A DNA stretch of 38,429 bases, taken from positions 1 through 38,429 of IMG/VR virus record IMGVR_UViG_3300045988_155207. The stretch is one strand, 5' to 3'. Under the pieces are notes generated by a model that was given only the letters and a program-made list of their open reading frames with translations, was not told the origin of the DNA and ran no database searches. Shown here piece after piece: positions 14,628-38,178 of the stretch (the first letter of the stretch is position 1; the number at the start of each line of letters is the position of its first letter). Source of the stretch: a virus. The position numbers and the translations under genes are program-made.

Positions 14628-14737
14628 ATGAAAGCGGTGGAATGCCTCACTGTCCATTTTGGTTTTTCGGCAATGAAGAAAGTGCCGATAAGGATTTGAA
14701 AGACAATTTTGAAATTGTTGATGAAAAAAAAGATTAA
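14576..14737 (+). CDS. Small 53-aa protein: charged N-terminus, central G-G-M-P-H-C-P-F-W-F-F-G, acidic C-terminus
   Basis: Not in the ORF track (<60 aa). GGAGG RBS 9 nt upstream of the ATG. Nested out-of-frame in the 3' end of the 6-TM gene. Confidence 0.3.
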   Translation: MEKAEKIDFSNRPKDTMNESGGMPHCPFWFFGNEESADKDLKDNFEIVDEKKD

Positions 14738-17319: not shown

Positions 17320-17712
17320 ATGTGGAAAACGATAAACATCAACAGACAGAACATCAGAACGGAGACGGATAAGGCGGTGCTGATCGCCTGCCCTCACGCC
17401 AGCGATTATAACGGGTATTGCTTTTGGCACCCGTCAAAGCTGGTGCGCGAGGGCAGACACAAGGGCGCGGTATCAATCAGCTACACCGAAGAATTTACTT
17501 TCCGTTTGAAAAAATACGGTAAAGGCAGATACAACAGCCACGAAGTTATAGACGAGATACAGCTCGGTTATGACGAATTGGAAGAAGTATTCGGAGTTAT
17601 GAACGATAATATATCTGCGCCGCAATTCAAGAACGATTATGAAACGCACAAGCCCGAGGCGGTGGAGGCGGTCAAGACAGAGGCGGACGCAAGTCTGATA
17701 GAAAATGAATAA
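17320..17712 (+). CDS. Hypothetical protein, distant paralog of the previous gene (TETDKAVLI...WHPSK)
   Basis: 130 aa, AAGGAG RBS. Confidence 0.5.
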   Translation: MWKTININRQNIRTETDKAVLIACPHASDYNGYCFWHPSKLVREGRHKGAVSISYTEEFTFRLKKYGKGRYNSHEVIDEIQLGYDELEEVFGVMNDNISAPQFKNDYETHKPEAVEAVKTEADASLIENE

Positions 17713-18913
17713 TCAGCAAGCGGCGTTTGAAAAGCTCTCACGGCTCAAAGTCGGTGCGCTGTTCATGGAGATGGGGACGGGCAAGACGAAAGTCGCGCTC
17801 GACCTCATAGCCTCAAAGCGGCACAAAGTCGATTATATCCTGTGGATTTGCCCGTACTCGCTCAAAAGCGAGATTGAGGCGGAGCGGAAGAAATGGCACG
17901 CTGATTTAAGGCTTGATATTGTCGGGTGTGAAAGTATTGGGTCAAGTGACAGAATATACCTTGAAACGCTCCGAAAGGTAGCGGGTCGGCGGGCGTTTAT
18001 AGTCGTTGACGAGAGCCTGAAAATAAAAAACCGCGAGGCAAAGCGCACGGAACGAATTTTGCGGCTGGGGGAAACGGCAGAATACAAGCTGATCTTGAAC
18101 GGAACGCCGTTATCAAAAAACGTGCTCGATTTGTGGACGCAAATGCAATTCCTTTCTCCGAAAATCCTGAATATGAATTACAATCAGTTCAAGAATACGT
18201 ATTGCGAGTATTACATTCGCGGACGGCTGAAAGGGCTTGTAAAAAAGCAACATAATGTTGAACATTTAATTGCGAAAATCGAGCCGTATATTTTCGATAG
18301 CGAGCTGGAACTTGGCAAGCGAAAGAATTATATCGACTATACCTACAAAATGGACGACCTCGCGGGATATGATGAATTAAAAATGAGCTACTTGCAAGCC
18401 CCGATATTCGACTTTATGGCGGTTTCGCAGGTTCTACAACAGCACTATTGCAAAAGCGGGGGAAAAGCCGAAATAATCGAAAATTTGATAAATGAGATAA
18501 ACGAACAAGTTATAGTGTTTGTCAAGTATTTGAGCAGTATTCCGAAAGGGGCAGCGGCTTTAATCGGAGATATGAACGAGCGGGAGCGCGAGGCGGTTAT
18601 AAACGGTTTTCGCGCGGGCAAAATCAAAGTTTTGTATGTGACATACGGGTGCGGGGCTTTCGGGCTTAATCTTCAATGTTGCAAGTATATGATATTTGCC
18701 GACCATACCTTTGACTATGCCCAGCGCATACAGGCAGAGGCGCGAATTTTCCGTCTCGGGCAAGCCGATGACGTGCATTATTACAGCTTGTGGTGTAATT
18801 GTGGACTGGAACGCCTTATAAAAGGCAGTTTAGACAAGAAAACAAGCCTCTTGAATGAGGTTAAAAAAGAAATTGATAAAAAAGGAGCGGATAAATGGCT
18901 AAGAAGTATTTGA
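17705..18913 (+). CDS. SNF2-family (SF2) ATPase/helicase, compact form
   Basis: 402 aa. Walker A GTGKT, motif II VVDESLKIKN, LNGTPL, and C-terminal helicase motifs (...GFRAGKIKVLYVT..GLNLQ...ARIFRLGQ). Confidence 0.75.
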   Translation: MNNQQAAFEKLSRLKVGALFMEMGTGKTKVALDLIASKRHKVDYILWICPYSLKSEIEAERKKWHADLRLDIVGCESIGSSDRIYLETLRKVAGRRAFIVVDESLKIKNREAKRTERILRLGETAEYKLILNGTPLSKNVLDLWTQMQFLSPKILNMNYNQFKNTYCEYYIRGRLKGLVKKQHNVEHLIAKIEPYIFDSELELGKRKNYIDYTYKMDDLAGYDELKMSYLQAPIFDFMAVSQVLQQHYCKSGGKAEIIENLINEINEQVIVFVKYLSSIPKGAAALIGDMNEREREAVINGFRAGKIKVLYVTYGCGAFGLNLQCCKYMIFADHTFDYAQRIQAEARIFRLGQADDVHYYSLWCNCGLERLIKGSLDKKTSLLNEVKKEIDKKGADKWLRSI

Positions 18914-20202
18914 AAAAGAATGTTTACGACGCAGCGCGCGAGCGTATAGCAGTTGCATTTCGTGACTTCGATAATGTACTTGTAGCGTTTTCGGGCGGCA
19001 AAGATAGCGGCGTTTTGCTTAATCTCTGCTATGACTATGCGAAAGAAAACGGACTGCTGGACAAAATGGCTATGTATTACGAGGATTACGAGGGCGGTTA
19101 TAACCTGACCGCTGAATATGTGGAGCGGACTTTCAACGGCTTTGAGGGCATAAAAAAGTATTGGCTTTGCCTGCCGATAAAGGCGCGCTGCTCGGTGTCT
19201 ATGTTTCAAACGCATTGGACGCCGTGGGACAGGGATTGCCGCGACATATGGATAAGGGAATACCCGAAAAGCCCGTATCTGATAACCGAGGACAACAGCC
19301 CGTTTGAGTTTGTGAAAAATACAAGCGGTTTTGATACTCGCGTGCTATTCTCAAAGTGGTTTTCAAATACTTACGGCAAGACTGCCGTAATGGTCGGCAT
19401 AAGAGCAGATGAAAGCCTTTCGCGCCTTGCAATTATCACGAGCGGGCAGCGGAAATATATGCACGCTGGACTGTCATATACGAAAACGATTGACGAAAAC
19501 ACCGTGAATTTTTACCCGATTTACGATTGGACGACCGCCGACGTGTGGATCGGCAACGCAAAAATGGGCTGGGATTATAATAGGCTTTACGACCTGTTTT
19601 ATCAGGCGGGGCTGTCAATCGACCAAATGCGAGTTGCAAGCCCGTTTCACGATTGCGGACAAGCGAATTTGAAGCTGTTCCGCGTGATAGAGCCGCAGAC
19701 GTGGGGGCGTATGGTGAGCCGTGTCAACGGCGTGAATTTTACGGGCATATATGGCGGCACTACCGCTATGGGCTGGAAGAACATAAAAAAGCCCGAGCAT
19801 TTCACGTGGAAAGAGTATATGGAGTTTTTGCTTTCCACTCTGCCCGAAGAAACGCGCAAGCGGTATGAGCAGAAGTTTGAAAAAAGCAAGTGGCATTGGC
19901 GTGTTCAAGGCGGCGCGCGCAGCGAGGAGTTTATCAAGCAGCTGGAAGCCGAGGGCGCATCGATACGTCGGAGTGGGCGCACGTCAAAGGCTTGTAAGGT
20001 CAATACTGACCGCGAAGTCGTATATATTGACGACTGGATAGACGATACCAGCGTCGAGGAGTTCCGCAAGGCTCCGACGTACAAGCGCGCCTGCATAGCA
20101 ATTCTGAAAAACGACGTGCAATGCCTTTACTGCGGTTTCAGCAGGACAAAGAGCGAGGAAGAAAAACGCCGCAAAGCGTTAGAAAAGTATAAAAATTTAT
20201 AG
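18895..20202 (+). CDS. PAPS-reductase-family PP-loop protein with DUF3440-like C-terminus (IbrA/DndC-like)
   Basis: 435 aa. SGGKDS PP-loop motif near the N-terminus, plus the size and architecture of IbrA-like proteins. Confidence 0.65.
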   Translation: MAKKYLKKNVYDAARERIAVAFRDFDNVLVAFSGGKDSGVLLNLCYDYAKENGLLDKMAMYYEDYEGGYNLTAEYVERTFNGFEGIKKYWLCLPIKARCSVSMFQTHWTPWDRDCRDIWIREYPKSPYLITEDNSPFEFVKNTSGFDTRVLFSKWFSNTYGKTAVMVGIRADESLSRLAIITSGQRKYMHAGLSYTKTIDENTVNFYPIYDWTTADVWIGNAKMGWDYNRLYDLFYQAGLSIDQMRVASPFHDCGQANLKLFRVIEPQTWGRMVSRVNGVNFTGIYGGTTAMGWKNIKKPEHFTWKEYMEFLLSTLPEETRKRYEQKFEKSKWHWRVQGGARSEEFIKQLEAEGASIRRSGRTSKACKVNTDREVVYIDDWIDDTSVEEFRKAPTYKRACIAILKNDVQCLYCGFSRTKSEEEKRRKALEKYKNL

Positions 20203-20214
20203 GAGAAAGGAGCA

Positions 20215-20727
20215 ATGTATCAATCACCCGTTTACTCGGTTATCGCTGTGCCGATTGAAAAAATACAAGCGAATGCATACAACCCGAACGCGGTTGCGCC
20301 GCCCGAAATGAAGCTGCTGTATCAGTCAATCAAGGAAGACGGCTATACAATGCCGATTGTATGTTATTATCTGAAAGAGCAGGACAAATACGAGATAGTG
20401 GACGGCTTTCACCGTTACCGCACAATGCTTGAACACAAGGACATTTACGACCGAGAGGGCGGCAAGCTGCCCGTCGTCGTGATAGACAAGGATATTTCCA
20501 ACAGAATGGCAAGCACGATCCGCCACAACCGCGCACGCGGCACGCACTCAATCGAGCTGATGACAAATATCGTCGCGGAGCTGGTAGAGGGGGGAATGTC
20601 CGACGCGTGGATAATGAAAAATATCGGAATGGACGCGGACGAACTGCTGCGCCTGAAACAAATCAGCGGGCTTGCCGCGCTGTTCAAAGATAAAGATTTT
20701 ACAAACGCTTGGGAGGTAGGAAAATGA
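20215..20727 (+). CDS. ParB/Srx-fold nuclease-like domain protein (IbrB/DndB-like)
   Basis: 170 aa with the motifs ANAYNPN and IVDGFHRYRT (DGxHR). Confidence 0.65.
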   Translation: MYQSPVYSVIAVPIEKIQANAYNPNAVAPPEMKLLYQSIKEDGYTMPIVCYYLKEQDKYEIVDGFHRYRTMLEHKDIYDREGGKLPVVVIDKDISNRMASTIRHNRARGTHSIELMTNIVAELVEGGMSDAWIMKNIGMDADELLRLKQISGLAALFKDKDFTNAWEVGK

Positions 20728-20851: not shown

Positions 20852-20974
20852 AATGCGGTTGTGGCACATAGACCTTATCCCGGTACTCCCACGTCAGCAG
20901 TTAACGGCGGATGGACTTTTCGCTGCAAAGAGGGACTTTTATGGAAATGTATTATATATTATACATCACTTTTA
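20852..20974 (+). pseudogene. Truncated remnant of a pyrimidine-dimer DNA glycosylase-like gene (N-terminal 40 codons only)
   Basis: MRLWHIDLIPVLPRQQL matches the conserved N-terminus of endonuclease-V/TIGR02328-like proteins. The ORF stops after 40 aa and is followed by a promoter. Confidence 0.35.
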
Positions 20975-21003: not shown

Positions 21004-21032
21004 TTGACATTTTATTTTTTTTATTGTATAAT
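21004..21032 (+). promoter_or_regulatory. Promoter TTGACA (21004-21009)-17-TATAAT (21027-21032) with long A-tract UP region
   Basis: Perfect consensus. Confidence 0.7.
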
Positions 21033-21652: not shown

Positions 21653-21814
21653 ATGAAATATTGTGATTTTGAAAAACTTGCTTATTTGTGCCAAAAGTAT
21701 GGCTTTAAAACGATGGGCGATATTGTTTTGTTTCTTAAAAAACATGACTTGAATATATATGAATTTTTTGAAATTTTGAAAAAAGGAGGTGAGAAAGTTG
21801 AAAATGCTTTCTGA
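21653..21814 (+). CDS. Small hypothetical protein
   Basis: ATG at 21653 with GAGGAGG RBS. The track ORF start at 21566 has no RBS. Confidence 0.4.
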   Translation: MKYCDFEKLAYLCQKYGFKTMGDIVLFLKKHDLNIYEFFEILKKGGEKVENAF

Positions 21815-21998
21815 ACGTATTTTAGATTTTAGAGCTAAAAAAAATATATCTGCAAAGACATTCGCCGAAATGTGCCACTTGACTGCTCAAACTATATACA
21901 ATATAGAAAATAATTTGCAAAATCCGAGCAAAATAACGAAGTTGAAGATTGAGAAAGTTTTAAAGGAGGAAGAAAAAAATGAAACTGTCTGCTTCTAA
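21804..21998 (+). CDS. XRE-family HTH transcriptional regulator (Cro/CI-like)
   Basis: ATG at 21804. AKTFAEMCHLTAQTIYNIENN fits an HTH_3 helix-turn-helix. Confidence 0.5.
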   Translation: MLSERILDFRAKKNISAKTFAEMCHLTAQTIYNIENNLQNPSKITKLKIEKVLKEEEKNETVCF

Positions 21999-22788
21999 AA
22001 TAAAATGCTACAAGTCCTGCAAGCGTGCTTATTTTTTCAAATATATAGAAGAACTTGTACCGGTACAGGACGCAGAGCCGCTTGTAGCTGGAAAAACTTA
22101 TCACTCTATGATTGAAAACCTATATAAGACAGGAGGGGTTGAAGTTGATGTCGAAAATAATCCTAAAATTTCGGCAATGGCAAAAGCCTATGAAAAATAT
22201 ATTTATCCTAAGTTTTCTGTTGTAGAAACAGAAAAAGAGTTTGAGTTTAATTTTTCAGAAGATATAAGTCTTGTAGGAAGATTTGACGGCATAGCGGAGG
22301 ACGGTTGCGTGGTTGAGCATAAGACAACCTCTCAAGATATTGACGAGGAGTACATTTACAACTTACAATGGGACGAACAGATTTTGACTTATATGCTCGC
22401 AAGTGGCAAGAATGAAATGTATTACACCGTCTGCAAAAAGCCAACCATTCGGCAGAAACAGAACGAAACAGCGGAAGAGTATTACGAGCGTTGCTGTGCG
22501 TGGTATGCAGAGGACACGGACAAAAAAATCCGCGTTATCAAAGTAACACGCAACGAAAAGGAAGTGCAGGAGCATAAAGCTCTTTTACGGCATATGGCAA
22601 GCATTATGTTCGTCGATGAAGAAGATTACAAGTTCTTAAAGGATCACGGCGACACAAGTTGTGAGAATATATTTTACCGCAACTGTTCAAACTGCACGGC
22701 ATACGGGCGTAAGTGCGAGTTTGCGAGTATCTGCCTTGACTATGACCCGAAGCTTGAATACGTTGAATTTAAGAAAAAGGAGCAATAA
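21979..22788 (+). CDS. PD-(D/E)XK exonuclease, Cas4/RecB-like with C-terminal Cys cluster
   Basis: 269 aa. LSASKIKCYKSCKRAYFFKYI N-terminus, GRFDGIAEDGCVVEHKT (D..E.K), and a C-terminal C..C..C....C cluster. Confidence 0.7.
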   Translation: MKLSASKIKCYKSCKRAYFFKYIEELVPVQDAEPLVAGKTYHSMIENLYKTGGVEVDVENNPKISAMAKAYEKYIYPKFSVVETEKEFEFNFSEDISLVGRFDGIAEDGCVVEHKTTSQDIDEEYIYNLQWDEQILTYMLASGKNEMYYTVCKKPTIRQKQNETAEEYYERCCAWYAEDTDKKIRVIKVTRNEKEVQEHKALLRHMASIMFVDEEDYKFLKDHGDTSCENIFYRNCSNCTAYGRKCEFASICLDYDPKLEYVEFKKKEQ

Positions 22789-23161: not shown

Positions 23162-23872
23162 ATGTATCAAAATCTTGAAGAGCTTACTCAAAAGAAAGAA
23201 CCTTACACGGCGTTGCTGTATTGTGCGCCTGGTGTGGGCAAGAGTACCGCGATAGGGCTTATCGCAGAACGGAGCGAAGGGCGTACGCTTGTGCTGGATA
23301 TTGACCGTACAATCGTTAAGACCCTTGCAAAGCACGAAGTCGTGAAAGACCTGTCGAAAATCGATGTGGAGCGTATCGATAATATCCACACATGGGACGA
23401 TTGGTCGAAGAAACTCGCCGAACTTGGCAAACTGAAAGAAGCGGGAAAGCTCGAATACAGCACAATCGCTGTCGATAACATCAGCGAGTTGGAACGTTGC
23501 ATTCTGTCCGACCTCGGCAGTCAGGGCAAGAATAAGGGCGTGCCTGCACAAGCCGACTATCAGTATATGCAGTTTAAGCTCGTGAACAGCTTGCGCTATT
23601 TGAAGTCGCTCGGAGTTAATGTGGTGCTTACCGCGTGGGAAACGGTGCGGGATATAGTCCACCCCGACGGCACAAGCTATTCGCAGTTCATTCCGAAAAT
23701 CTCGCTGAAAATCGTCGATAACATCTGCGGGCTTTGCGACGTAGTCGGCAAGATTTTGGCAAAGCAAGACGGCACGAGGGGCATTGTGTTAGAGGCAACG
23801 CAGAGCATTTACGCAAAAAATCAAATTGACAGCAGAAAGGGCTGTTTGGTTGAAAATTTTATTGAGGAGTAA
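23162..23872 (+). CDS. AAA_24-family ATPase (Sak4-like recombination protein)
   Basis: 236 aa. Walker A CAPGVGKST and Walker B IAVDNISELE. Confidence 0.6.
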   Translation: MYQNLEELTQKKEPYTALLYCAPGVGKSTAIGLIAERSEGRTLVLDIDRTIVKTLAKHEVVKDLSKIDVERIDNIHTWDDWSKKLAELGKLKEAGKLEYSTIAVDNISELERCILSDLGSQGKNKGVPAQADYQYMQFKLVNSLRYLKSLGVNVVLTAWETVRDIVHPDGTSYSQFIPKISLKIVDNICGLCDVVGKILAKQDGTRGIVLEATQSIYAKNQIDSRKGCLVENFIEE

Positions 23873-23877
23873 AAAAA

Positions 23878-24312
23878 ATGGATTGGAAATTTGAAAGAGA
23901 AGAAAGCAAGGTTTTTGAAGAGATTCCCGTTGGTGAACACAGGGTGCGCATTGCAAACGCCGAAAAGGCAGTTAGCAAATCGGGAAAGGACATGCTCGTA
24001 CTTACGCTTGACGTTAGCGGCTATAAGTCAAGGCTATGGCACTATGTCGTTTTTATGCCGGAACAGCCTCAAATAACAAATAGAAACCTTACGGCGATAT
24101 TCGATAGTTTTGGCATCGCTGATGGCGATTTTAACCTCAAAAATTGGATTGGCAAGGTTGGTGGTTGTTCCACTAAAAAAGATGATTTTGGAACAAAAAT
24201 AAGATACTTTTTAAATAAGAAACAGCAAGAAAAATTAAGTGCTTGGGTTGAACCCAATGAAGGTCTTTCTGCACTTCATAAAGTTGAAGATGATGAAGAG
24301 CTGCCGTTTTAG
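23878..24312 (+). CDS. DUF669-like protein (putative ssDNA-binding partner of Sak4)
   Basis: 144 aa, immediately downstream of the AAA_24 gene. Confidence 0.4.
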   Translation: MDWKFEREESKVFEEIPVGEHRVRIANAEKAVSKSGKDMLVLTLDVSGYKSRLWHYVVFMPEQPQITNRNLTAIFDSFGIADGDFNLKNWIGKVGGCSTKKDDFGTKIRYFLNKKQQEKLSAWVEPNEGLSALHKVEDDEELPF

Positions 24313-24368: not shown

Positions 24369-24743
24369 ATGAATAATAAAAAACTTGGCACAGCCTTTGA
24401 GCGTGAGTTTTGTGAGCTGTTAGCCGCTCGCGGGTTTTGGGTGCATTTTATGTCGCCCTCCGCGAGCGGGGCGCAGCCCTGCGATATAATCGCGTGCAGA
24501 AACAACACGCCGTATCTGTTTGACTGCAAGACGTGTGAGAAAGACACCTTCCACATATCACGGTTGGAAGACAATCAGCGTTTGGCATTTCAGCGTTTCG
24601 ATAAAACGGGCAACGACCTTGCTTTCGTCGCAGTAAAGCATGATGGAAAGATTTATTTCGTACCGTACTATATGCTCGTAAAATTGCAGAGCATAAAGCT
24701 GGACGCGGCTATTTCAGCCGATAACTGGGAGTTTTGGAAATGA
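24369..24743 (+). CDS. Holliday-junction resolvase, Hjc-like PD-(D/E)XK
   Basis: 124 aa. GTAFEREFCELLAARGFWV resembles the archaeal Hjc motif. Confidence 0.55.
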   Translation: MNNKKLGTAFEREFCELLAARGFWVHFMSPSASGAQPCDIIACRNNTPYLFDCKTCEKDTFHISRLEDNQRLAFQRFDKTGNDLAFVAVKHDGKIYFVPYYMLVKLQSIKLDAAISADNWEFWK

Positions 24744-26140
24744 AATTTATTTTGGCGAACAAAGTTATAATCGAAGACCCGACCCCCGAGATGTTAGCGT
24801 ACTGTAAAAGTACGCTTTCATTTCCTAACCCCGATTATCTCAAAAGAGAGGAAAAGGGGAAATGGACGGGCAACACACAGCGCGAAATCGTGCTATTTGA
24901 GCGAGCGGGCAATCGGCTTTATCTCCCGTTCGGTACTTGCAAAAACATTTACTTGCGATTTAAAAAAGATATAACGCGCGTAGAAAGCCTTATTTGCCCC
25001 TTACGCGCCCGTGAGTATGGTAGCCATATAAATTTATACGGATACCAACAAAACGCCGTAGAAGCCGTTTTACGGGCTAAAAACGGCATACTCGTTGCGC
25101 CGTGCGGAAGTGGCAAGACGCAAATGGGGCTGGAAGCCGTTGCGAGGATAGGCGGTAAGACGTTGTGGGTTGCGCACACGACAGACCTTTTTACGCAGAG
25201 TATGAACAGGGCAAAGCAATGCTTCGGGCTGCCTGCGAGTGAATACGGCACGATAACGGCGGGGAAAGTAGACATCGGGAATACGATAACGTTCGCGACA
25301 GTACAAACGGCGTGCAATATCGATTTATCACAGTATCGTGACGAATGGGATTGCGTCATTGTAGACGAGTGCCATAAATGCGTAGGGTCACCCACGCGCA
25401 TGATGATGTTTTACAAGGTACTTTCCGCACTTTCAGCGCGTTACAAAATAGGGCTGACCGCCACGCCGTATCGCGCGGACGGATTAGAGCGTTGTATGTT
25501 TGCCTTGCTCGGAGATATTATCCACAAAGTGCCGCAAAGCGCAGTCGCGGGGAATACCGTGCCCGTGAGGGTGAAATTCGTTAGCACGAATTACACCCCC
25601 TGTATTGACAACATAACCGATGGCGACGGTACGCTGAATTACGCGAAGTTAATCAGCGATATTACGGAGAATGTCAAAAGGAATGAGGTTATTATTCAAC
25701 AAATATTCGAGGCGTCAAGAAACGGTGCAGTACTTGTATTATCAGATAGGATAAATCACCTCGAAGATTTAGAAACGGAAATCACTATGTACTCGCCATA
25801 TAACATAAAATGCGCTCGGCTCGGCATTGCCTCCACAAAGGCAGAAAAGGAACGCCGTGCAAGAATACTCACGGACTTGAACAACGGGGCGTTAAATGTC
25901 GTTTTTGCGACGTACAAGCTGGCGAAAGAGGGGCTGGACGTACCGAACCTGCGCACGGTGGTTTTTGCCACGCCGCAGAAAGACAAGACGACCGTCATAC
26001 AATCGGCAGGACGTGTGGCGCGGAAGGCAGACGGAAAAGATTTCGGCACAGTCATTGATTTTTCCGACAATTTCGGCTTGCTTTATAGCTACGAACGAAA
26101 ACGCAAAAATTTTTACAAAAAGTTTGGTTACATTTATTGA
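24740..26140 (+). CDS. DEAD/DEAH-box SF2 DNA helicase
   Basis: ATG at 24740. Motifs ILVAPCGSGKT, VIVDECHK and GLTATP, plus a helicase C domain. Confidence 0.75.
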   Translation: MKFILANKVIIEDPTPEMLAYCKSTLSFPNPDYLKREEKGKWTGNTQREIVLFERAGNRLYLPFGTCKNIYLRFKKDITRVESLICPLRAREYGSHINLYGYQQNAVEAVLRAKNGILVAPCGSGKTQMGLEAVARIGGKTLWVAHTTDLFTQSMNRAKQCFGLPASEYGTITAGKVDIGNTITFATVQTACNIDLSQYRDEWDCVIVDECHKCVGSPTRMMMFYKVLSALSARYKIGLTATPYRADGLERCMFALLGDIIHKVPQSAVAGNTVPVRVKFVSTNYTPCIDNITDGDGTLNYAKLISDITENVKRNEVIIQQIFEASRNGAVLVLSDRINHLEDLETEITMYSPYNIKCARLGIASTKAEKERRARILTDLNNGALNVVFATYKLAKEGLDVPNLRTVVFATPQKDKTTVIQSAGRVARKADGKDFGTVIDFSDNFGLLYSYERKRKNFYKKFGYIY

Positions 26141-26165
26141 CATTTACGCCCTTGTGTAGTATAAT
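26138..26165 (+). promoter_or_regulatory. Promoter TTGACA (26138-26143)-16-TATAAT (26160-26165)
   Basis: Consensus hexamers. Confidence 0.6.
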
Positions 26166-26209
26166 TGTATCAAATGAATATATTTCCATAACTTATATAT
26201 ATTTTTTTC

Positions 26210-26252
26210 GCTATATATAAAAGTTATAAGAAATGTATGAAGTATGATACAC
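26210..26252 (-). repeat. Inverted internal copy of the terminal-repeat core (matches 19-61 with 2 mismatches)
   Basis: The reverse complement of 26210-26252 is GTGTATCATACTTCATACATTTCTTATAACTTTTATATATAGC. Positions 19-61 read GTGTAGTATACTTCATACATTTCTTATAACTTTTATATATAGC. Confidence 0.8.
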
Positions 26253-26276
26253 TTAAAAAAGGAGTAGGAAAGAAAA

Positions 26277-26546
26277 ATGAAGTATCTAATGGAATGCGGG
26301 CACGTTGCGAATGCATTTGACGCTGATGGCAAACCTATATGCATTATATGTTATGGCACCCGTGACGGTTATGACAAAGTAGTAAATGAAATAGATTGCA
26401 ATAACGACTATGTACTCAAAGGACGTCACGCAAGATGCTTATATTGCAATCGTACTGTCGATAGTAGCTGGAAGTTACCATTCTTCGAGTATTTTCCTAA
26501 CAAAATTTGTGATGAATATTATTGCGGCTGTGGAGGTTGGGATTGA
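26277..26546 (+). CDS. Cys-rich (zinc-binding) small protein
   Basis: 89 aa with CGH...CIIC...CLYC...CGCGGW. Confidence 0.5.
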   Translation: MKYLMECGHVANAFDADGKPICIICYGTRDGYDKVVNEIDCNNDYVLKGRHARCLYCNRTVDSSWKLPFFEYFPNKICDEYYCGCGGWD

Positions 26547-26803: not shown

Positions 26804-27009
26804 TTTGTCCAAAATGTAAAAGTAATAGAGTTGCTGTTCAAGTAGTGTCCGAACAAAAAAAGAGAGGGTGTCTTGCCGCAACTCTTTGGATATTATTAGC
26901 ACTATGTACTTTTGGCATTATTCTTGTAGTCCCTTTATTGACTAAAAAAGGGAGCAAAACAAAAAATTATGCAATTTGCCAAAATTGCGGTCATAGGTGG
27001 AGGGTTTGA
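26800..27009 (+). CDS. Zinc-ribbon membrane protein
   Basis: 69 aa with CPKC...TM...CQNC. Confidence 0.5.
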   Translation: MICPKCKSNRVAVQVVSEQKKRGCLAATLWILLALCTFGIILVVPLLTKKGSKTKNYAICQNCGHRWRV

Positions 27010-27011
27010 CA

Positions 27012-27193
27012 TGGAAAAAAACTATAACTTGAAAGAGGCAGCGTACTTTTTGGGCATAAGTGTGAGGACGGTGCGTGAGTGGATACGCGCCGGAAAGCTC
27101 ACGGCTAAAAAGTATGTATGCAGAGGCGAACACGGAAAAAGTTGGTTTATTTCAGAAAGCGAGTTGGTTCGCGTTCAAAATTCAATGAAATAA
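27012..27193 (+). CDS. Excisionase/MerR-like HTH DNA-binding protein
   Basis: LKEAAYFLGISVRTVREWIRAGKL matches the HTH_17 pattern. Confidence 0.55.
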
Positions 27194-27222
27194 TATGTCG
27201 TAAAAAAAATGGAGCTAAAATA

Positions 27223-29520
27223 ATGAAAATATTTAATTATGACAATATTCCCACCGAGTTAAAAGTTCAAAAAAATTGGGTATGCTGGAGCAACGACAAG
27301 CTGCCGAAAAATCCGCACACAGGCGGTAATGCACAAAGCAACAACAAAAGCACTTGGGGAACATTTGACGAGGCGATAAAAGCCGTTGACAAATATGGCT
27401 TTGGCGGAGTGGGCTTTATGTTTGAACCGCCTTTTTTTGGTATAGATTTAGACAAGTGTCTTGATAGTGCAGAGTTCATCGAGGAGTTCGTCGAAACGCT
27501 GCAAAGCTATACAGAAATAAGCAAGAGCGGAAACGGTATTCACATAATCTGTAAGGGCACGCTCCCCGCTGGCGCAAAACGGCGCGGCAATGTGGAAATG
27601 TACAGCGAGCGGCGGTACTTCATTATGACGGGGAAACTATATTGCGATAAATATCGCAATATAGTAGATTGCACGGAAACGATAAAACCTCTCCACGCAA
27701 AATATCTTGGCGACAATACGCCCAAAGTTGCGCCGAAAATTGTAATGCCGATTGATATTTCTGACGAGGAAATTGTCGATAAAGCCCGCAGTTGCAAGAC
27801 GGGCGCAGCTTTTCAACTTTTGTATAGTGGCGGCTGGCAAGGCATTTACAACAGTCAAAGCGAGGCAGACCTTGCGCTTTGTAATCAGCTTGCATTTTGG
27901 ACGCAGCGTGACGCCGCACGAATGGATAGGATATTCCGCACAAGCGGTTTAATGCGTCCAAAATGGGACACAAAGCGCGGCGCGTACACCTATGGACAAC
28001 TTACCATAGAAAAGGCTATCGCGGCGTGTACGGACGTTTACGAGCCTAAAACGGTACAGGACGACACGAGCCTTGCTATTAGCTTTTTCCGAGACGGTAA
28101 AAGCCGTGTGGAAATGCCCAAAAACAACTACGATATGACCGACACGGGCAACGCTCAACGTATGCGCGACAAGTTCGTCGGCAATATCAAGTATTCGTTC
28201 GTTCATAAAAAGTGGTATTATTGGACGGGCAAAGTGTGGGCGGTTGACTACACCGGCGAGATTAAAAAACTTGCAGACGAGATTGTCAACGACATGAAGA
28301 AAGAGGCGTTTGCTCAAGACGATGAAGATGTGCGTGACGCTAAATTAAAGTGGGCGAACAAGACCGCTTCGTCAAGGGGCAAAGAGGCAATGATTAAAGA
28401 GTGCCAGCACCTTGACGGCATACCCGTACTGCCCGAAGAAATGGACGCGTACACGGATTATTTGAACGTGCAAAACGGTATCGTAAATCTGCGTAACGGC
28501 GAGTTAATGCCGCACGACAGCGCGTTTATGATGACAAAGTGCGGGTATGCCGAGTATGACAATACGAGTGGCAAACAGCCCGAATTATGGCTGAAATTCC
28601 TTGACGATATAACGGACGGCGACAAGGAAACGGTTGATTATTTGCAAAAATGTATAGGCTATTCACTTTCGGGAAGTGTTCGCGAACAGCAAGCATATGT
28701 TCTTTACGGTATAGGCAATAATGGCAAAAGCACATTTTTAGACACGATAAGCGAGCTGTTAGGCGGGTATGCGAGTAACGTACAGCCTGAAACGATTATG
28801 CTTCGAAGAAACGGTGACAGCGGCGCGAACAGCGATATAGCACGCCTGAAAAGCGCAAGGTTTGTCACGTCGGAAGAACCGACGGAAGGCGTGCGGCTTA
28901 ACGAGGGGCTTGTCAAACAACTTACGGGCGGTGGCAAAGTAACGTGCCGTTTCCTTTACGGCGATGAGTTCGAGTACGAGCCTGAATTTAAGATATGGAT
29001 TGCCACAAATCACAAGCCCGTTATCCGGGGGACAGATGTGGGTATTTGGCGCAGAATACGCCTTATACCTTTCGAGGTCAATATACCGAAAGAAAAGGTT
29101 GATAAAACGCTTAAATATAAGTTGCGCAAGGAATTGCCGCAAATCATGAAATGGGCGGTTGACGGCTGTATTAAGTGGCAGAAAGAGGGGCTTACGCCCC
29201 CTGCAAGGGTGGAGCAAGCCACTGGCGAATATAAAGCCGAAATGGACTTGCTGGCGGCGTTTTGTGACGCGTGTATCACGATTGATTATGTCAATGGCGA
29301 GCGCATATCCGCGACAGACCTTTTCTCGGTATATGCGGCATGGGCAAACAGCAACAATGAATTTGCGATGAGTTCGCGCAAGTTTTTTAACGAGGTGACG
29401 AAAAAGCTGCCCGAAAAGGTACGCGGGGGAAGCGGTATGTTTTATACAAAAATTCATTTGACGGACTATGCAAAAACATTTTTGCCGCGTAAAAACTATT
29501 CGATTGAGGACTTTAAGTGA
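27223..29520 (+). CDS. Bifunctional primase-polymerase / SF3 (P4-type) helicase
   Basis: ATG at 27223 with GGAG RBS. Prim-pol N-terminal domain. C-terminal Walker A GIGNNGKST with D5/P4-like region. Confidence 0.8.
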   Translation: MKIFNYDNIPTELKVQKNWVCWSNDKLPKNPHTGGNAQSNNKSTWGTFDEAIKAVDKYGFGGVGFMFEPPFFGIDLDKCLDSAEFIEEFVETLQSYTEISKSGNGIHIICKGTLPAGAKRRGNVEMYSERRYFIMTGKLYCDKYRNIVDCTETIKPLHAKYLGDNTPKVAPKIVMPIDISDEEIVDKARSCKTGAAFQLLYSGGWQGIYNSQSEADLALCNQLAFWTQRDAARMDRIFRTSGLMRPKWDTKRGAYTYGQLTIEKAIAACTDVYEPKTVQDDTSLAISFFRDGKSRVEMPKNNYDMTDTGNAQRMRDKFVGNIKYSFVHKKWYYWTGKVWAVDYTGEIKKLADEIVNDMKKEAFAQDDEDVRDAKLKWANKTASSRGKEAMIKECQHLDGIPVLPEEMDAYTDYLNVQNGIVNLRNGELMPHDSAFMMTKCGYAEYDNTSGKQPELWLKFLDDITDGDKETVDYLQKCIGYSLSGSVREQQAYVLYGIGNNGKSTFLDTISELLGGYASNVQPETIMLRRNGDSGANSDIARLKSARFVTSEEPTEGVRLNEGLVKQLTGGGKVTCRFLYGDEFEYEPEFKIWIATNHKPVIRGTDVGIWRRIRLIPFEVNIPKEKVDKTLKYKLRKELPQIMKWAVDGCIKWQKEGLTPPARVEQATGEYKAEMDLLAAFCDACITIDYVNGERISATDLFSVYAAWANSNNEFAMSSRKFFNEVTKKLPEKVRGGSGMFYTKIHLTDYAKTFLPRKNYSIEDFK

Positions 29521-30317
29521 TGAACATTTTTAATCTTTCGTTCGGTAAAGATAGTATGGCGACACTTATTCTTGCCGCCGAGCAAGGCATACCGATTGAC
29601 CGCGTTATGTATTGCGATATTCGGTTTAATAACGAAATAAGCGGCGAACACCCGCTTATGGCAGAGTGGATACCGACGGCGGAGCGGATATTGAAAGAGC
29701 GGTTTGGGATAACCGTTGAACACACGTTTGGCAAAACTTATTTGGAGGCATTTTATACTGTAAAAAAAACTGGGAGATTTTCTGGCAAAATTTACGGTTT
29801 TCCATATATTCGTGGCGCTTGGTGTAACCATATATTAAAATTAAATGCAATATCAAAATATCTTTCTCAATTCAAGAAACAAACAATAACTCAATTCGTG
29901 GGTATCGCATGTGATGAGCCACGGCGTTGGGAAAGAATGAAAGCGAAAGAAAATTCTCGAAAAAAGTATCGTTCGCTTCTTGTTGAACAAAACCTCACCG
30001 AGCAAGACGCTTTTCGTATTTGCAAAAAATACGGGCTTCTTTCTCCGTTATACAAAAGCAATGACAGCATATTCCGTGGTGGTTGTTGGTTTTGTCCGAA
30101 ACAATGTAGTGCGGATTTATATAGCCTTTGGAAAAACTATCCCGATTATTATCAAAAACTTGTTGATATTGAAAATGACAGCAGGATTATTAACAAATTC
30201 AAGCCCGACGGCAATCCGTCCGATTATGCCAAACGCTTTGAAGCGGGTTATGTGCCGAAACGGAGAAAGAAACAGCAGACGTCCGAACAGCTGGATATGT
30301 TTAAGGACTTCAAATAA
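29520..30317 (+). CDS. PAPS-reductase-like PP-loop protein, paralog 1
   Basis: SFGKDS PP-loop and a C-terminal GGCWFCPKQC motif. Paralog of 33613-34416. Confidence 0.65.
   Translation: MNIFNLSFGKDSMATLILAAEQGIPIDRVMYCDIRFNNEISGEHPLMAEWIPTAERILKERFGITVEHTFGKTYLEAFYTVKKTGRFSGKIYGFPYIRGAWCNHILKLNAISKYLSQFKKQTITQFVGIACDEPRRWERMKAKENSRKKYRSLLVEQNLTEQDAFRICKKYGLLSPLYKSNDSIFRGGCWFCPKQCSADLYSLWKNYPDYYQKLVDIENDSRIINKFKPDGNPSDYAKRFEAGYVPKRRKKQQTSEQLDMFKDFK
29547..29611 (+). repeat. 65-nt segment 100% identical to 33640-33704 (within about 170 nt of roughly 90% identity)
   Basis: Direct sequence comparison of the 5' ends of the two paralogs. Confidence 0.8.
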
Positions 30318-31692: not shown

Positions 31693-32277
31693 ATGGAACA
31701 GTTCAACATTGAATGGAAAGATATTGCAAGCGTAAAACCTTACGCCCGCAACGCAAAGAAGCACGATGAAACGCAGATTGCAAACGTTGCCGAGAGTATC
31801 AAGCAATTCGGCTGGCAGCAGCCTATCGTATGTGACGCGGACGGCATTATCATTATCGGGCATTGCCGCCTTTTAGCGGCGAAAAAACTCGGGTTGAAGA
31901 AAGTACCCGTCAAGACTGCGGATAACCTTTCCGACGAACAGGTCAAAAAGCTGCGCGCGCTCGATAACAAGCTGAACGAGAGCGACTGGGACTTTGACTT
32001 GCTCGCCGATGATATAGGCGAACTTGACTTTTCGGGCTTTGATATTGACTGGGGAATTGTTTCTCCTGATGATTACGGTGAAAGTTTTGAATTGCCTGAC
32101 GGCGATAAAAGCGAAATATGCCAAATGACATTTACTCTTCATGAGAGGCAAGCCGAATTGATAAAAGAGGCAATGAAAAACGTAAAAGATGATATAACGG
32201 AAACTTTTGGTAATACGAATAGCAACGGAAATGCTCTTTATGAGGTGGTTCGGCAATGGGCAGAGCAAAGGAAATAA
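31693..32277 (+). CDS. ParB N-terminal (ParB-like nuclease) domain protein
   Basis: 194 aa. ...KPYARNAKKHDETQIANVAESIKQFGWQQPIVCDADGIIIIGHCRLLAAKKLG... Confidence 0.7.
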   Translation: MEQFNIEWKDIASVKPYARNAKKHDETQIANVAESIKQFGWQQPIVCDADGIIIIGHCRLLAAKKLGLKKVPVKTADNLSDEQVKKLRALDNKLNESDWDFDLLADDIGELDFSGFDIDWGIVSPDDYGESFELPDGDKSEICQMTFTLHERQAELIKEAMKNVKDDITETFGNTNSNGNALYEVVRQWAEQRK

Positions 32278-33002
32278 TTGTAAAGGTAATTCCTCGAAAT
32301 TTAGCAAATGACTTTATTGTAAAACATCATTATTCTCATAAATATATGCAATCAAGTCAAGTACATTTCGGAGTTTTTTGGGGAAATAATTTACATGGTG
32401 TTATGCAATTTGGAAGCTGTATTGACAGAAAAAAAATGCAAACTCTTGTAAGTGATTGCGAATGGACTTCTTTTTTAGAATTAAATCGTATGGCGTTTGA
32501 TGACGTTTTGCCCCCAAATAGTGAAAGCAGGGCAATTTCGATTGCTATTAAATTATTAAAAAAATATGCTCCTCAAGTAAAATGGATTATTTCTTTTGCA
32601 GACGGGTGTTCCTGTGGAGATGGCACAATTTATCGTGCAAGCGGATTTGTTTTGACGGATATAAAAAAGAATTTTAATCTTTGTGAATTGCCAAATGGAG
32701 AAAAAATACATAAATTGACGCTTGAAAATAATCCAAATCAGCCAAGAAAAGAGTTAAATGGTAAAAGTTATTATGAAATTACAAGTGGAAAATATTCTTT
32801 TAAAAAATATGTTCAAGTAGCCAACGCAAAAATACTTGAAGGGTATCAATTCAGATACATTTATTTTATCGATAAATCATATAAAAAGCGGCTGACGGTG
32901 CCTATTATTCCGTTTTCCGAAATAGACAAAATCGGCGCGGGAATGTATAAGGGAGAAAAAGTAAGCCGAGAAGAACGGCACAATAAAAAGCACTCCGAAT
33001 AA
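32256..33002 (+). CDS. Mom-like (GNAT-fold) DNA-modification protein (putative)
   Basis: 248 aa, very AT-rich. N-terminal KHHYSHK...FGVFW.NNLHGVMQFGS and WIISFADGCSCGDGTIYRASGF resemble the Mom adenine-carbamoylmethylation family. This is a recollection of a pattern, not verified. Confidence 0.45.
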   Translation: MGRAKEIIVKVIPRNLANDFIVKHHYSHKYMQSSQVHFGVFWGNNLHGVMQFGSCIDRKKMQTLVSDCEWTSFLELNRMAFDDVLPPNSESRAISIAIKLLKKYAPQVKWIISFADGCSCGDGTIYRASGFVLTDIKKNFNLCELPNGEKIHKLTLENNPNQPRKELNGKSYYEITSGKYSFKKYVQVANAKILEGYQFRYIYFIDKSYKKRLTVPIIPFSEIDKIGAGMYKGEKVSREERHNKKHSE

Positions 33003-33152: not shown

Positions 33153-33626
33153 TTGGCGCGTAAACAGGACGAAAACCTTATTCCGAATAGTCAAAGAAGT
33201 CCGAGCGAAGTTCGAGCAAACAGCTCAAAAGGCGGAATAAAAAGCGGACAGGTACGGCGGCAGAAAAAAACCGTTGCCGAATATCTCCGAAAATGGGCGG
33301 ACGGAGAGGTCAGCGAAAAGAATAAAAAGGCGTTAGAAGCGTTGGGTTTGAGTGAAGAAGCCACGAACCGAACGCTTCTCGTCGTGCCGTTGATAAAAAA
33401 GGCAAGCAGCGGCGACACAAAAGCCCTGCAAATGGCGTTGGAGCTTTTGGGCGAAGATAAGAAGAAAGAACTCGAAATTAAGAAGCTACGGCGCGAAATT
33501 GAGTTGTTAAAAGCCGAAACGCAAAAGTTGCGTATGATGACGGGCGAGGACAGGGAGGTCGAGGACTTAACCGCGCTCGGGGATATGTTGCGGGTAGATA
33601 GTGAGGACGACGATGAACATATTTAA
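33153..33626 (+). CDS. Terminase small subunit (putative)
   Basis: 157 aa with TTG start and AGAGGTGG RBS. Basic N-terminus and coiled-coil C-terminus. Positioned immediately upstream of the packaging genes. Confidence 0.45.
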   Translation: MARKQDENLIPNSQRSPSEVRANSSKGGIKSGQVRRQKKTVAEYLRKWADGEVSEKNKKALEALGLSEEATNRTLLVVPLIKKASSGDTKALQMALELLGEDKKKELEIKKLRREIELLKAETQKLRMMTGEDREVEDLTALGDMLRVDSEDDDEHI

Positions 33627-34416
33627 TTTATCATTTGGAAAAGATAGTATGGCGACACTTATTCTTGCCGCCGAGCAAGGCATACCGATTGACCGCGTTA
33701 TGTACTGCGAAATTAAGTTTAATGACGAAATAAGCGGCGAGCACCCTCTTATGGCGGAATGGATTCCGACCGCAGAAAGGCGGCTGAAAGAGTTATTCGG
33801 CATAACGGTTGACCACGCGTATAGCGGAGTGAGCTTTGAGGAGCAATTTTACAAGGTCAAACAAAAAGGTAATCACGCAGGGGATAGGTATGGCTTTCCG
33901 TATGTTGTAGGCGCGTGGTGTAATGACAGGTTAAAGCTGGGTGCGATAAGCAAATATCAGGCGCAGTTTGGCAATAACAGAATCACACAATTCGTCGGAA
34001 TTGCCTATGACGAGCCTATCCGTTGGGAACGTATGAAGAAGAAAGAAACGGAAAAATGCAAATACCGCTCTCTGCTCGTCGAGCAAAACCTTACTGAACA
34101 AGACGCGTTTGAGATATGCAAGCGTTATGACCTATTATCGCCGATATACAGCGTAGACGGAATATATCGCGGCGGTTGCTGGTTTTGCCCGAAACAATGT
34201 CTTGCCGATTTGCATAGCCTGTGGAAGAATTATCCTAAACTATGGCAAAAATTATGCGATATTGAGCCTGAAAGCCATAATACTTTTAAGCCGAATTGTA
34301 CACTTGCAGAATTACAAGCACGGTTTGAGAATGGATATATCCCAAAACGTAAAAAAGTAAAACAAAATTTTATACAAACAAGTATGTTTGACTATGAAAA
34401 AAACACAGACGATTGA
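33613..34416 (+). CDS. PAPS-reductase-like PP-loop protein, paralog 2
   Basis: ATG at 33613. Same SFGKDS and GGCWFCPKQC motifs, and a nearly identical N-terminal 60 aa to paralog 1. Confidence 0.65.
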   Translation: MNIFNLSFGKDSMATLILAAEQGIPIDRVMYCEIKFNDEISGEHPLMAEWIPTAERRLKELFGITVDHAYSGVSFEEQFYKVKQKGNHAGDRYGFPYVVGAWCNDRLKLGAISKYQAQFGNNRITQFVGIAYDEPIRWERMKKKETEKCKYRSLLVEQNLTEQDAFEICKRYDLLSPIYSVDGIYRGGCWFCPKQCLADLHSLWKNYPKLWQKLCDIEPESHNTFKPNCTLAELQARFENGYIPKRKKVKQNFIQTSMFDYEKNTDD

Positions 34417-35704
34417 TTGGAAGCCGTTCAGCGAAAAGCATAAAGCATACATACGCAACGCGTTGCGTTGCAAGATGAGCGTTGCCGAAGGATCTATTCG
34501 TAGCGGTAAGACGATTGATAACTGTATCATAGCCGCCGCCTATCTCGAACGTTGCAAGGACAAAATACACCTTGCAAGCGGAAGTACTATTGGCAATGCA
34601 AAGCTGAATATCGGTGCGTGTAATGGCTTCGGGCTTGAAAATCTTTTCCGAGGGCGGTGCAAATGGGGCAAATATAAAGGCAATGAGTGTTTGTATCTTT
34701 TCACCCAAACTGGGGAAAAGATACTAATATTCGCGGGCGGCGGGAAGAGCGACAGTTACAAGAAAATACTCGGTAACTCCTACGGGCTGTGGATAGCAAC
34801 GGAAATTAACGAACATTACGACAGCGACGACAGCCGCGAGAGCTTTATCAAAGTTGCGTTCGGCAGACAGGTTGCGAGCTATGAGCCGAAAATATTGTGG
34901 GATTTGAACCCTTGCGCACCGCGTAACAAGATTTATGATGAATATATTGACCTGTACAAAAAAACGTACATTGGCGGATATAACTATGAACATTTCACGC
35001 TCGCAGACAATTACAGCATAACCGAACAACGGCGCAAAGAGATTGAGGCGCAGTACGATCCGAACTCGGTATGGTACAGGCGCGATATACTGGGACAACG
35101 TACGGTTGCCGAGGGGCTGGTGTATCAGCAATACGCGAATACGCCCGATGAGTATGACGTGAAAGAGGTCAACCCCGCTGACCTTATGGCGGTTAATATC
35201 GGAGTGGACTTCGGCGGGAACGGCTCTGCGCACGCGTTCGTCGCTACCGGCTTTTTGCGGCGCTTTGAAAAGGTTATCCCTTTACAAAGCGTAAGGATAA
35301 CCGAAGCTATCGACCCCGAACAACTTAACCAAAGGTTTGCAGATTTTACAAAAATCGTGTATAATCAGTACAGAAAGCCGATGAACGTCTACGCCGACAG
35401 CGCAGAGCAGGTGCTTATCCGGGGATTGCGTAAGGTAGGCGTTACAGAACGCCTACCTATCGTGATACACAACGCCCGTAAATTGCCCATAAACGACAGA
35501 ATAAGGCTCGTTAATAAACTCATCGCGCAGAACCGTTTCGGGGTTTGTAGGGGCGCACAGAGCGTTAAATCGGCATTGTGCGAGGCGTTATGGAATCCGA
35601 AGAAAGAAGATGAGCGATTGGACGATAATTCGAGCGACATCGACTCTGTCGACGCCCTCGAATATTCGATTGAACCTTTCTTCGGCGAATTATCAAGAAT
35701 ATAA
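34388..35704 (+). CDS. terL: Terminase large subunit
   Basis: 438 aa. Walker A GSIRSGKT, followed by a nuclease-domain acidic residue pattern. Confidence 0.85.
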   Translation: MTMKKTQTIDWKPFSEKHKAYIRNALRCKMSVAEGSIRSGKTIDNCIIAAAYLERCKDKIHLASGSTIGNAKLNIGACNGFGLENLFRGRCKWGKYKGNECLYLFTQTGEKILIFAGGGKSDSYKKILGNSYGLWIATEINEHYDSDDSRESFIKVAFGRQVASYEPKILWDLNPCAPRNKIYDEYIDLYKKTYIGGYNYEHFTLADNYSITEQRRKEIEAQYDPNSVWYRRDILGQRTVAEGLVYQQYANTPDEYDVKEVNPADLMAVNIGVDFGGNGSAHAFVATGFLRRFEKVIPLQSVRITEAIDPEQLNQRFADFTKIVYNQYRKPMNVYADSAEQVLIRGLRKVGVTERLPIVIHNARKLPINDRIRLVNKLIAQNRFGVCRGAQSVKSALCEALWNPKKEDERLDDNSSDIDSVDALEYSIEPFFGELSRI

Positions 35705-38161: not shown

Positions 38162-38178
38162 CGGCGCGTTATTTTTTT
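38150..38178 (+). terminator. Rho-independent terminator (AACGCGC-loop-GCGCGTT + T7)
   Basis: GC-rich 7-bp stem followed by ATTTTTTT. Confidence 0.7.

Follow-up and report, generated by a model that had tools for sequence, protein, structure and literature searches.

Two inverted copies of an AT-rich palindrome as possible replication-control sites in an uncultured gut phage

Introduction

The IMG/VR virus record IMGVR_UViG_3300045988_155207 (positions 1 to 38,429; this whole stretch of 38,429 nucleotides is referred to as the window) is a complete genome of ~38.3 kb from an uncultured gut phage. The same AT-rich palindrome occurs in it twice, once where the two ends of the record overlap (the junction copy) and once, in the opposite orientation, in front of the operon of the phage primase (the internal copy). 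The question raised by this locus is what such a pair of elements does for the phage. A first-pass annotation of the sequence, in which an inverted match between the two places had been noticed, offered operators for a phage regulator, terminase recognition elements or origin iterons as explanations. Here, packaging is found to be unlikely and an origin-type role is favored by position, with the correction that the element is a symmetric palindrome and not a set of direct iterons. By analogy with known systems, the two copies may be paired replication-control sites that act at the DNA level for the NrS-1-type primase-helicase of the phage, a reading that is put forward as a realistic possibility falling short of the probable.

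Results

The element was delimited by aligning the two copies with each other. Positions 18-61 of the + strand match 26210-26253 of the − strand as an inverted repeat of 44 nt with 2 mismatches (42/44), and shuffled sequences gave 0 matches. The 43-nt inverted match reported by the first-pass annotation is therefore confirmed and lengthened by one nucleotide. It is real but was understated, as the full homology covers 118 nt (26136-26253 on the + strand against 136-18 on the − strand), in which 96 of the 114 ungapped columns agree and the local score is 108, compared with 21 ± 3.4 in shuffles. The 42/44 arm match is the best-preserved part of this homology. The repeated unit consists of a sigma-70-type promoter followed by an imperfect AT-rich palindrome of ~100 nt, which comprises, in order, an outer box GTGTAGTATA, a box ATACATTTC, an alternating-AT center, and the inverted boxes GAAATGTAT and TATACTACAC. 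Two invariant boxes of 8-9 bp, ATACATTT and AAATGTAT, lie ~53 bp apart and flank the alternating-AT center.

The junction palindrome occupies positions 18-117 and is assigned to the − strand, as it is the reverse-strand reading that aligns with the internal copy (98.3 bits with covariance model R1). Read on the + strand, its left side carries box B (GTGTAGTATA, 19-28) and box A (ATACATTTC, 33-41), its center carries TTTTATATATAG twice (50-76), and its right side carries box A' (GAAATGTAT, 86-94) and two boxes B' (98-107 and 108-117). The 9-bp inverted pair described earlier, ATACATTTC with GAAATGTAT, was thus correctly placed. The palindrome is duplicated at 38328-38427 through the overlap of the ends, and as DNA it is predicted to fold at −13.6 kcal/mol (z −5.1). 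A promoter on the reverse strand (106-135; TTGACA at 135-130, an 18-nt spacer and TATAGT at 111-106, with 11/12 consensus positions) reads into the junction palindrome; this promoter is a homologue of the one at 26137 and has no gene encoded downstream of it.

The internal palindrome (26154-26253, + strand; 84.5 bits with the covariance model) lies between the helicase gene, which ends at 26140, and the ATG at 26277 of the first gene of the primase operon. Its left side comprises boxes B1 (26154-26163), B2 (TGTATCA, 26166-26172) and A (ATATATTTC, 26178-26186); the center spans ~26188-26226 and is followed by boxes A' (GAAATGTAT, 26230-26238) and B' (TATGATACAC, 26243-26252). Here, promoter and palindrome are fused: the internal promoter (26137-26165, + strand) matches the sigma-70-type consensus at 12/12 positions, and the outer left arm of the palindrome is its −10 region (GTGTAGTATAAT, 26154-26165), so that the −10 hexamer sits inside the outer box. 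Given this promoter and the ATG at 26277, the earlier placement of the internal copy in the 5' untranslated region of the 26277 operon holds. The internal copy is predicted to fold both as RNA (z −2.4 to −4.6) and as DNA (z −3.4). The first gene past it (26277-26546, + strand) encodes an 89-amino acid cysteine-rich protein that has no family match and whose first ~15 codons are conserved among relatives.

No third member of the family was accepted. The 9-mer GAAATGTAT occurs 8 times in the genome against 0.66 expected occurrences; two of the eight are accounted for by the duplicated end, and three more lie within the two palindromes. A role for it as a dispersed operator motif was rejected, as the copies outside the palindromes show no conservation and for the most part fall within coding sequence or at start codons. 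The sequence GGAAATGTATTATATAT at 20942-20958, which had been proposed as a further related copy, carries the 9-mer and shares only a few bases beyond it; it sits in the least stable stretch of the genome, was missed by both the nhmmer profile and the covariance model, and lies in a region that is replaced in the closest relative. The claim of a third copy was therefore abandoned. The two palindromes themselves are the second and third least stable 100-bp stretches of the genome. A scan of the genome against Rfam gave nothing at the gathering score, with spurious weak hits around both copies (for example, mir-466 at 23 bits).

The junction copy almost exactly fills the 119-nt sequence found at both ends of the window (1-119 = 38311-38429). 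If this exact direct repeat represented the ends of virion DNA, the palindrome that it covers would be a candidate recognition site for terminase, i.e. a packaging signal within a true terminal repeat. The position at which the contig starts argues otherwise. When both strands are computed, no 118-mer of the genome sorts co-lexicographically before the reverse complement of 2-119, which ends in the A9 run of the genome. The start of the contig is thus at most one base away from the k-mer that heads the sorted list; with 76,620 possible start positions, the chance of such a coincidence is estimated at ~3 in 10^5. An assembler built on a sorted succinct de Bruijn graph would be expected to begin the walk around a closed loop at the smallest k-mer, and 119 is a member of the default k list of MEGAHIT.

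The relatives are in agreement with this account. In the closest one (IMGVR_UViG_3300045988_085615; 40,369 nt), the circularized junction aligns at 95% identity over 455 nt, where it is internal and single-copy, and it is likewise internal and single-copy in seven further contigs, which end elsewhere and cross the region once. Given the start at the smallest k-mer, the k value of 119 and the single-copy internal region in relatives, the 119-nt repeat almost certainly arose during assembly, as an overlap between the ends of a genome that is circular or circularly permuted. The description of a terminal repeat thus stands for the exact 119-nt duplicate and is not supported for a physical end. 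In addition, a 68%-identical homologue of the large terminase is named a PBSX-family terminase by NCBI, and this label together with an SPP1-type portal and a Mu-F-like gene makes up a set that usually goes with headful packaging. The element also lies ~4.5 kb downstream of the presumed small terminase gene (terS; 33153-33626), past the portal and Mu-F genes and not beside it. Given the terminase label, the portal, the Mu-F neighbors and this distance, a packaging role is very improbable, and the 119-nt repeat of the contig provides no basis for assigning genome ends or a packaging mode.

Upstream of the junction palindrome, two copies of the heptamer TTTTCAC are found 11 nt from each other (38246-38263, + strand), and these could be binding sites. 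As iterons they were rejected, since 7 were found genome-wide against 9.9 expected; 2-4 copies are kept in the nearer relatives only, including the junction regions of loci L051, L053 and L064.

Conservation was assessed in relatives gathered by pattern scans and terminase-anchored look-ups, and copies were called by a profile hidden Markov model and a covariance model. The gene for the Mom-like protein, being mosaic among relatives, was unsuitable as an anchor for retrieving both copies. An exact 29-mer pattern of the element gave 0 hits in IMG/VR, and looser 22-mer scans returned from IMG/VR the closest relative and chance hits only, from metagenomes 23 hits that included three true relatives (L029, L030 and L040), and from GTDB genomes four chance hits and no host. 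Element-bearing loci are those of the IMG/VR relative (L001, L014), L029, L030, L040, L051/L052, L053/L054, L055/L056, L057/L058, L059/L060, L064 and, weakly, L061. The resulting set comprises 18 full-length copies, of which 9 are junction and 9 internal, plus one partial copy in L040.

The palindrome is carried by eight related metagenomic phages. With the present phage included, the junction copy was found in all 9 of the genomes examined, at terminase identities from 93% down to 72%, and it is always inverted and always located between the Mu-F gene (with small open reading frames) and the scaffold gene. The motif search of genome and relatives called for by the first-pass annotation therefore shows the palindrome to be conserved. 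The internal copy is in + orientation directly past the helicase gene in all genomes that cover the region except L061. In the six relatives for which the replication module is covered, the second palindrome lies 12-15 kb upstream of the junction copy and always bears a promoter; the spacing of the two copies is 12.1 kb here and 12.7-14.8 kb in L051, L053, L057 and L064. In L053, a second + copy is present directly past the primase gene. In L055-L059, the DNA flanking the palindrome has diverged beyond alignment, and the palindrome, the late promoter and its leader are kept. By contrast, neither the profile nor the covariance model found a copy in the relatives with ~70% identical terminases (L062 and L063), nor was a copy found in relatives with 57-68% identical primases, in those with ~60% identical capsids or in GTDB genomes. 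Thus, the element is a real repeat that is conserved in, and specific to, one clade, and neither Rfam nor the sequenced phages offer a counterpart. Its kind is more familiar and, by analogy, appears to be that of paired cis elements linked with replication or early transcription.

Several relatives contain mobile insertions that are absent here, namely intein domains in the helicase (L051 1-1445 and L064 1-412), an intein domain in the Mu-F protein (L053 12963-14630) and an IS605-type TnpA/TnpB pair (L064 7468-9027).

The two classes of copy differ in their relation to promoters. All nine internal copies have a promoter with 10-12/12 consensus positions at a fixed position. Among the junction copies, a strong promoter at that place is found in only two, those of this phage and of its closest relative; L055 has a 10/12 match at a different position, and the remaining six have no promoter. 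The first-pass annotation had placed all copies next to strong promoters, which is correct within this genome and fails for most junction copies across genomes. The consensus promoters that it located, at 171-199, 21004-21032 and 26137-26165, all match at 12/12 positions.

In this phage, the junction copy lies past the Mu-F-like gene (37140-37967) and an open reading frame of 63 amino acids, and ahead of the scaffold gene (313-831). It is bracketed by an intrinsic terminator (38147-38173, + strand), which closes the portal/Mu-F gene block and is found at the same place in relatives, and by the promoter of the scaffold/capsid operon (171-199, + strand), which stands back-to-back with the reverse-strand promoter at 135; there is no obvious transcription of the + strand between them. 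Junction copies in general lie between the terminator and the scaffold-operon promoter, at a distance of ~45 to 80 nt from the latter. Given this site, and given that only two of nine have a strong promoter, the role of the junction copy is unlikely to need transcription.

Between the 171-199 promoter and the scaffold gene, positions 215-305 (+ strand) form a structured leader. This leader gave a full-length but sub-threshold match to Rfam RF02991 (GP20-a) at 31.4 bits (gathering score 47.2; E 9e-4), and it is kept with apparently compensatory changes in relatives down to L063; in L062, it consists of three tandem units.

The fixed geometry of the internal copies invites an explanation in terms of an operator. 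A regulator, which might be the small HTH_17 protein (helix-turn-helix; 26969-27193), the XRE-type protein (21789-21998) or an unannotated one, would bind the symmetric boxes and block RNA polymerase at or just past the early promoter of the primase operon, and binding at the junction copy as well would affect the reverse-strand promoter at 135, the late promoter at 171 or both. In its favor, each of the nine internal copies is joined to a strong promoter, always at the same spacing and with the palindrome over the −10 region; in L053, two operons each begin with such a promoter-palindrome unit; conservation is equal in the two arms and peaks in box A of either side, as symmetric half-sites should show; and every element-bearing relative has small HTH genes nearby. 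The junction copies fit this explanation poorly, however, given that six of nine are promoter-less, that the L055 promoter is a 10/12 match at a different position and that the variable distance to the late promoter leaves no fixed geometry. A dyad of ~100 bp with half-sites ~53 bp apart is also unlike operators of 14-20 bp, the consensus promoters at 16972, 21004, 30397 and 31658 lack the element, and copies in the same genome differ in the center while each remains self-complementary. An operator is accordingly regarded as credible but unlikely.

An alternative in which the element acts as RNA was also considered. The 26137 transcript is predicted to begin ~5 nt before a long AU-rich stem-loop, which could stabilize the 5' end of the early mRNA, provide a site for a double-strand-specific RNase or alter elongation, and the junction copy could give rise to a similar small RNA from the reverse strand. 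The leader RNAs of the internal copies are predicted to fold at −15 to −25 kcal/mol (z −2.4 to −6.5), each internal copy would be transcribed from its own promoter, and in this phage, the promoter at 135 would yield a copy of the leader in the same sense. Against this, six of nine junction copies lack a matching promoter and lie past a terminator, and the outer stem holds bases of the −10 box or start site, which cannot be in the RNA. Moreover, a tally of pair counts gave no excess of wobble T-G cells (~16) over C-A mismatches (~15), no Rfam family was matched and no T-run follows the hairpin. A function in the leader RNA is therefore considered rather improbable.

As single-stranded DNA, 17 of the 18 copies are predicted to form one long hairpin (z −2.8 to −6.0). 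On the alignment, 79-80% of cells pair with the true partner, compared with 27-60% when the partner is slid. Double changes were counted in 20 cells as against 14.1 in shuffles, and 6 of 500 shuffles reached the observed number, which amounts to a modest enrichment. The center stem switches between TA and CG, as CCCATATA...TATATGGG in junction-type copies and AACTTATATA...TATATAAGTT in internal-type copies. Two candidate signals did not survive model-based alignment or wider comparison. A strand-specific signal, in which one arm would be better conserved, was rejected because the top-base frequency over the 18 copies is 0.82 in one arm and 0.84 in the other, with box A best kept on both sides; a compensatory change from C-G to A-T in the closest relative was rejected as a general feature because the position is mismatched in many copies.

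Several copies are chimeric. In the junction copy of this phage, the left arm (AAAACCCC) is of junction type and the right arm (AAAAGTTATA) of internal type, the internal copy of L030 is nearly identical to the junction copy of this phage, and the closest relative has a GAAG-to-GAAC substitution in both of its copies. Judged from these sequences, the best explanation for the 42/44 identity is that the two copies have recently exchanged one arm. Such exchange, together with the mosaic gene content past the internal copy and the presence of phage-encoded Sak4, exonuclease and resolvase, could be taken to mean that an ordinary early promoter with its leader has simply been copied or converted between sites by phage recombination, so that the likeness reflects exchange and not a shared function, with the repeats serving as points of module shuffling. 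This would leave unexplained why a promoter-less palindrome persists in the same place and orientation down to 72% terminase identity despite diverged flanks. Furthermore, the breakpoints of homology between phages map to ~26315-26321, inside the first gene of the operon and not at the palindrome. Exchange without shared function is thus a doubtful account of the pair.

The gene content provides the context for these elements. Annotation of open reading frames with Pfam and PHROG placed every gene on the + strand. The scaffold gene is followed by those for the major capsid (828-1973) and tape measure (4732-6462) proteins and an SNF2-type helicase (17705-18913). Downstream of the XRE-type gene are genes for an exonuclease (21979-22788), a Sak4 annealase (23162-23872), a protein that binds single-stranded DNA (SSB; 23878-24312), a Holliday-junction resolvase (24369-24743) and the DEAD/ResIII helicase (24734-26140). 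Four small open reading frames, with that for the HTH_17 protein among them, separate the latter from the gene for the 800-amino acid primase-polymerase/helicase (27118-29520), which the HTH_17 protein immediately precedes. The primase contains an NrS-1-type helix-bundle domain, a D5_N/SF3 helicase and a Pox_D5 C-terminal region, and matches Pfam NrS1-1_pol-like_HBD (8.4e-33) and the NrS-1 primase-polymerase in the PDB (~3e-37). DNA-modification genes lie between the primase and the large terminase (34388-35704), after which come the SPP1-type portal (35720-37171) and the Mu-F-like protein (Pfam PF04233). A megablast search with 25 kb of the genome found no match among INPHARED phages. In protein searches, the portal was at most 41% identical to human fecal phage contigs and Acutalibacter phage Fontainebleau, and the nearest cultured matches of the primase were Listeria phages (~48% identity).

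Several further features were observed. A likely DNA-modification set (18895-20202, 29517-30317, 33601-34416, 20215-20727, 31693-32277 and 32256-33002) is strongly variable among relatives and consists of three PAPS-reductase-like paralogues, two ParB_N-domain proteins and one Mom-family protein; one of the paralogues has DUF3440, and the remaining two share 84% DNA identity over 214 nt. A membrane protein of 211 amino acids (14709-15344, + strand) gave a weak match to Pfam AgrB (24.4 bits; cut-off 23), and its gene, within a GC-poor segment (14-15 kb; 28% GC), may have been acquired as a moron from a Firmicutes host. A scan for tRNA genes found no tRNA or tmRNA gene in the genome. The sole gene-like feature of the reverse strand (33134-32987) has a 12/12 promoter (33134-33106), an intrinsic terminator (33014-32987) and, between them, a tRNA-like RNA (33092-33022) with a 7-bp acceptor stem (GCGTACA/TGTACGC), a TTCAACT T-loop and a CCA end. 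The latter scored 22.5 bits against the Rfam tRNA family (gathering score 29; E 0.012) and was not called by ARAGORN.

Discussion

The closest parallel to the arrangement described here is positional and is found in Bacillus phage SPP1, in which oriL lies in the replication genes and oriR, 12-13 kb away, in a long intergenic region past gene 7 and before scaffold gene 11 (PMC6316719, PMC3485210). In the model for SPP1, replication starts at oriL, the origin-binding protein (G38P) on oriR stalls the fork, and resolvase, exonuclease, annealase and SSB turn the stalled fork into concatemer synthesis. In the SPP1 sequence (X97918), segments at ~4866-4948 (between genes 7 and 8) and ~35927-36018 (within gene 38) were found to be 74% identical over 93 nt in direct orientation. 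Thus, both phages have two homologous non-coding segments at a similar distance on the circular map (12-13 kb in SPP1; 12.1 kb here and 12.7-14.8 kb in relatives), one in the region of replication genes and the other between the equivalent of the Mu-F-type gene 7 and the scaffold gene. The segments are AT-rich in both cases, and both phages have all genes on one strand, an SPP1-type portal and their own exonuclease, annealase, SSB and resolvase.

A second parallel is provided by the IncQ plasmid RSF1010, whose helix-bundle primase RepB' uses two hairpins, one on each of the complementary strands, as its start sites (PMC8567376). The single-strand initiation sites ssiA and ssiB resemble the present 42/44 segments in being two highly similar hairpin-forming sequences of ~40 nt on complementary strands, and in both cases an archaeo-eukaryotic-type primase with a helix-bundle domain is encoded by the replicon. 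The ssi sites differ in lying side by side in one oriV, next to RepC-bound iterons, whereas the copies described here are 12 kb apart. In addition, the arms here are equally conserved with no clear strand-specific signal, and GTG is located 5' and not 3' of the hairpin.

Two other kinds of repeated promoter-proximal element bear comparison. In the PeSL cassettes of T4-type phages, a stem-loop that acts as a terminator precedes a promoter, and all copies point in the direction of transcription. The present element shares with them a repeated early sigma-70-type promoter with a stem-loop, a place at the head of variable gene blocks, and exchange of sequence between copies tied to mosaicism; it differs in having the hairpin after the promoter and overlapping with it, in the inverted orientation of one copy and in the lack of a promoter at most junction copies. 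The lambdoid OL/PL and OR/PR regions with nutL and nutR, and putL and putR of HK022, flank the repressor gene and drive divergent early operons by means of short operators or defined RNA elements. They likewise comprise two homologous promoter-proximal elements in opposite orientation in one genome, but in the present phage, the reverse-strand promoter is not conserved and has no gene downstream, and no Rfam family is matched.

On positional grounds, an origin-type role for the pair is favored, and retention of the palindrome where the flanking non-coding DNA is not retained is in keeping with such a role. The low duplex stability of both copies, their predicted folding into a single hairpin, the promoter carried by every internal copy and the phage's own NrS-1-type primase-polymerase also fit. 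From the observed anatomy, conservation, positions and exchange of sequence, we infer the following steps of binding, melting and initiation. The palindrome is predicted to be able to form a hairpin or cruciform. Several known phage origins combine a promoter and an AT-rich region, and transcription from the strong promoter would help to open the internal copy. The primase-helicase, or the HTH_17 protein encoded just ahead of it, would bind the boxes and start replication at the internal copy. The junction copy would either provide another origin or, in the form of a bound barrier or a cruciform, aid the switch to recombination-dependent concatemer synthesis, a step for which the phage encodes the required exonuclease, Sak4 annealase, SSB and resolvase of Holliday junctions.

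A number of observations weigh against a role in replication. The origins of SPP1 are direct iterons (AB boxes) beside an unwinding element and share one orientation, whereas both the boxes and the copies are inverted here; oriL lies within gene 38, whereas the internal copy is intergenic and fused to a promoter; and the palindromes have no sequence similarity to the SPP1 segments and are accompanied by a different initiator, of the NrS-1/D5 type. No G38P-like protein was found in PHROG and Pfam scans that covered most, but not all, open reading frames, and no set of the G38P/G39P/DnaB type was seen among the phage proteins. Relatives with ~65% identical primases have no palindrome upstream of the primase, and therefore the element is not tied to the primase family. 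GC skew climbs steadily across the whole genome with no turning point and marks no origin. As all promoter regions of this genome are AT-rich, the low duplex stability of the palindromes is not specific. The covariation is weak: the best-conserved pairs (ATACATTT with AAATGTAT and TGTA with TACA) are invariant and hence uninformative on pairing, and chimeric copies break the lower center stem yet persist. Finally, the fixed promoter fusion of the internal copies fits a transcriptional role equally well.

A more specific form of paired replication control, again built on analogy, would be a two-site switch that works through DNA secondary structure and not through iterons. Here, the internal copy, driven by its promoter, would open into hairpins that serve the NrS-1-type primase-polymerase/helicase as start sites, and the promoter-less junction copy, at the place equivalent to oriR, would extrude a cruciform or arrest the fork. 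A cut in that structure by the resolvase would leave a double-strand break from which recombination-dependent concatemer synthesis begins. In this detailed version, the proposal is quite unlikely to hold as it stands.

If the two palindromes are indeed replication-control sites, they would mark the start of replication, or the switch in its mode, in an abundant and uncultured lineage of gut Clostridia phages. The layout known from SPP1 would then recur with a very different initiator, an NrS-1/D5-type primase-helicase, and a very different DNA element, and the palindromes would provide a concrete substrate for studying how primase-polymerases choose their start sites.

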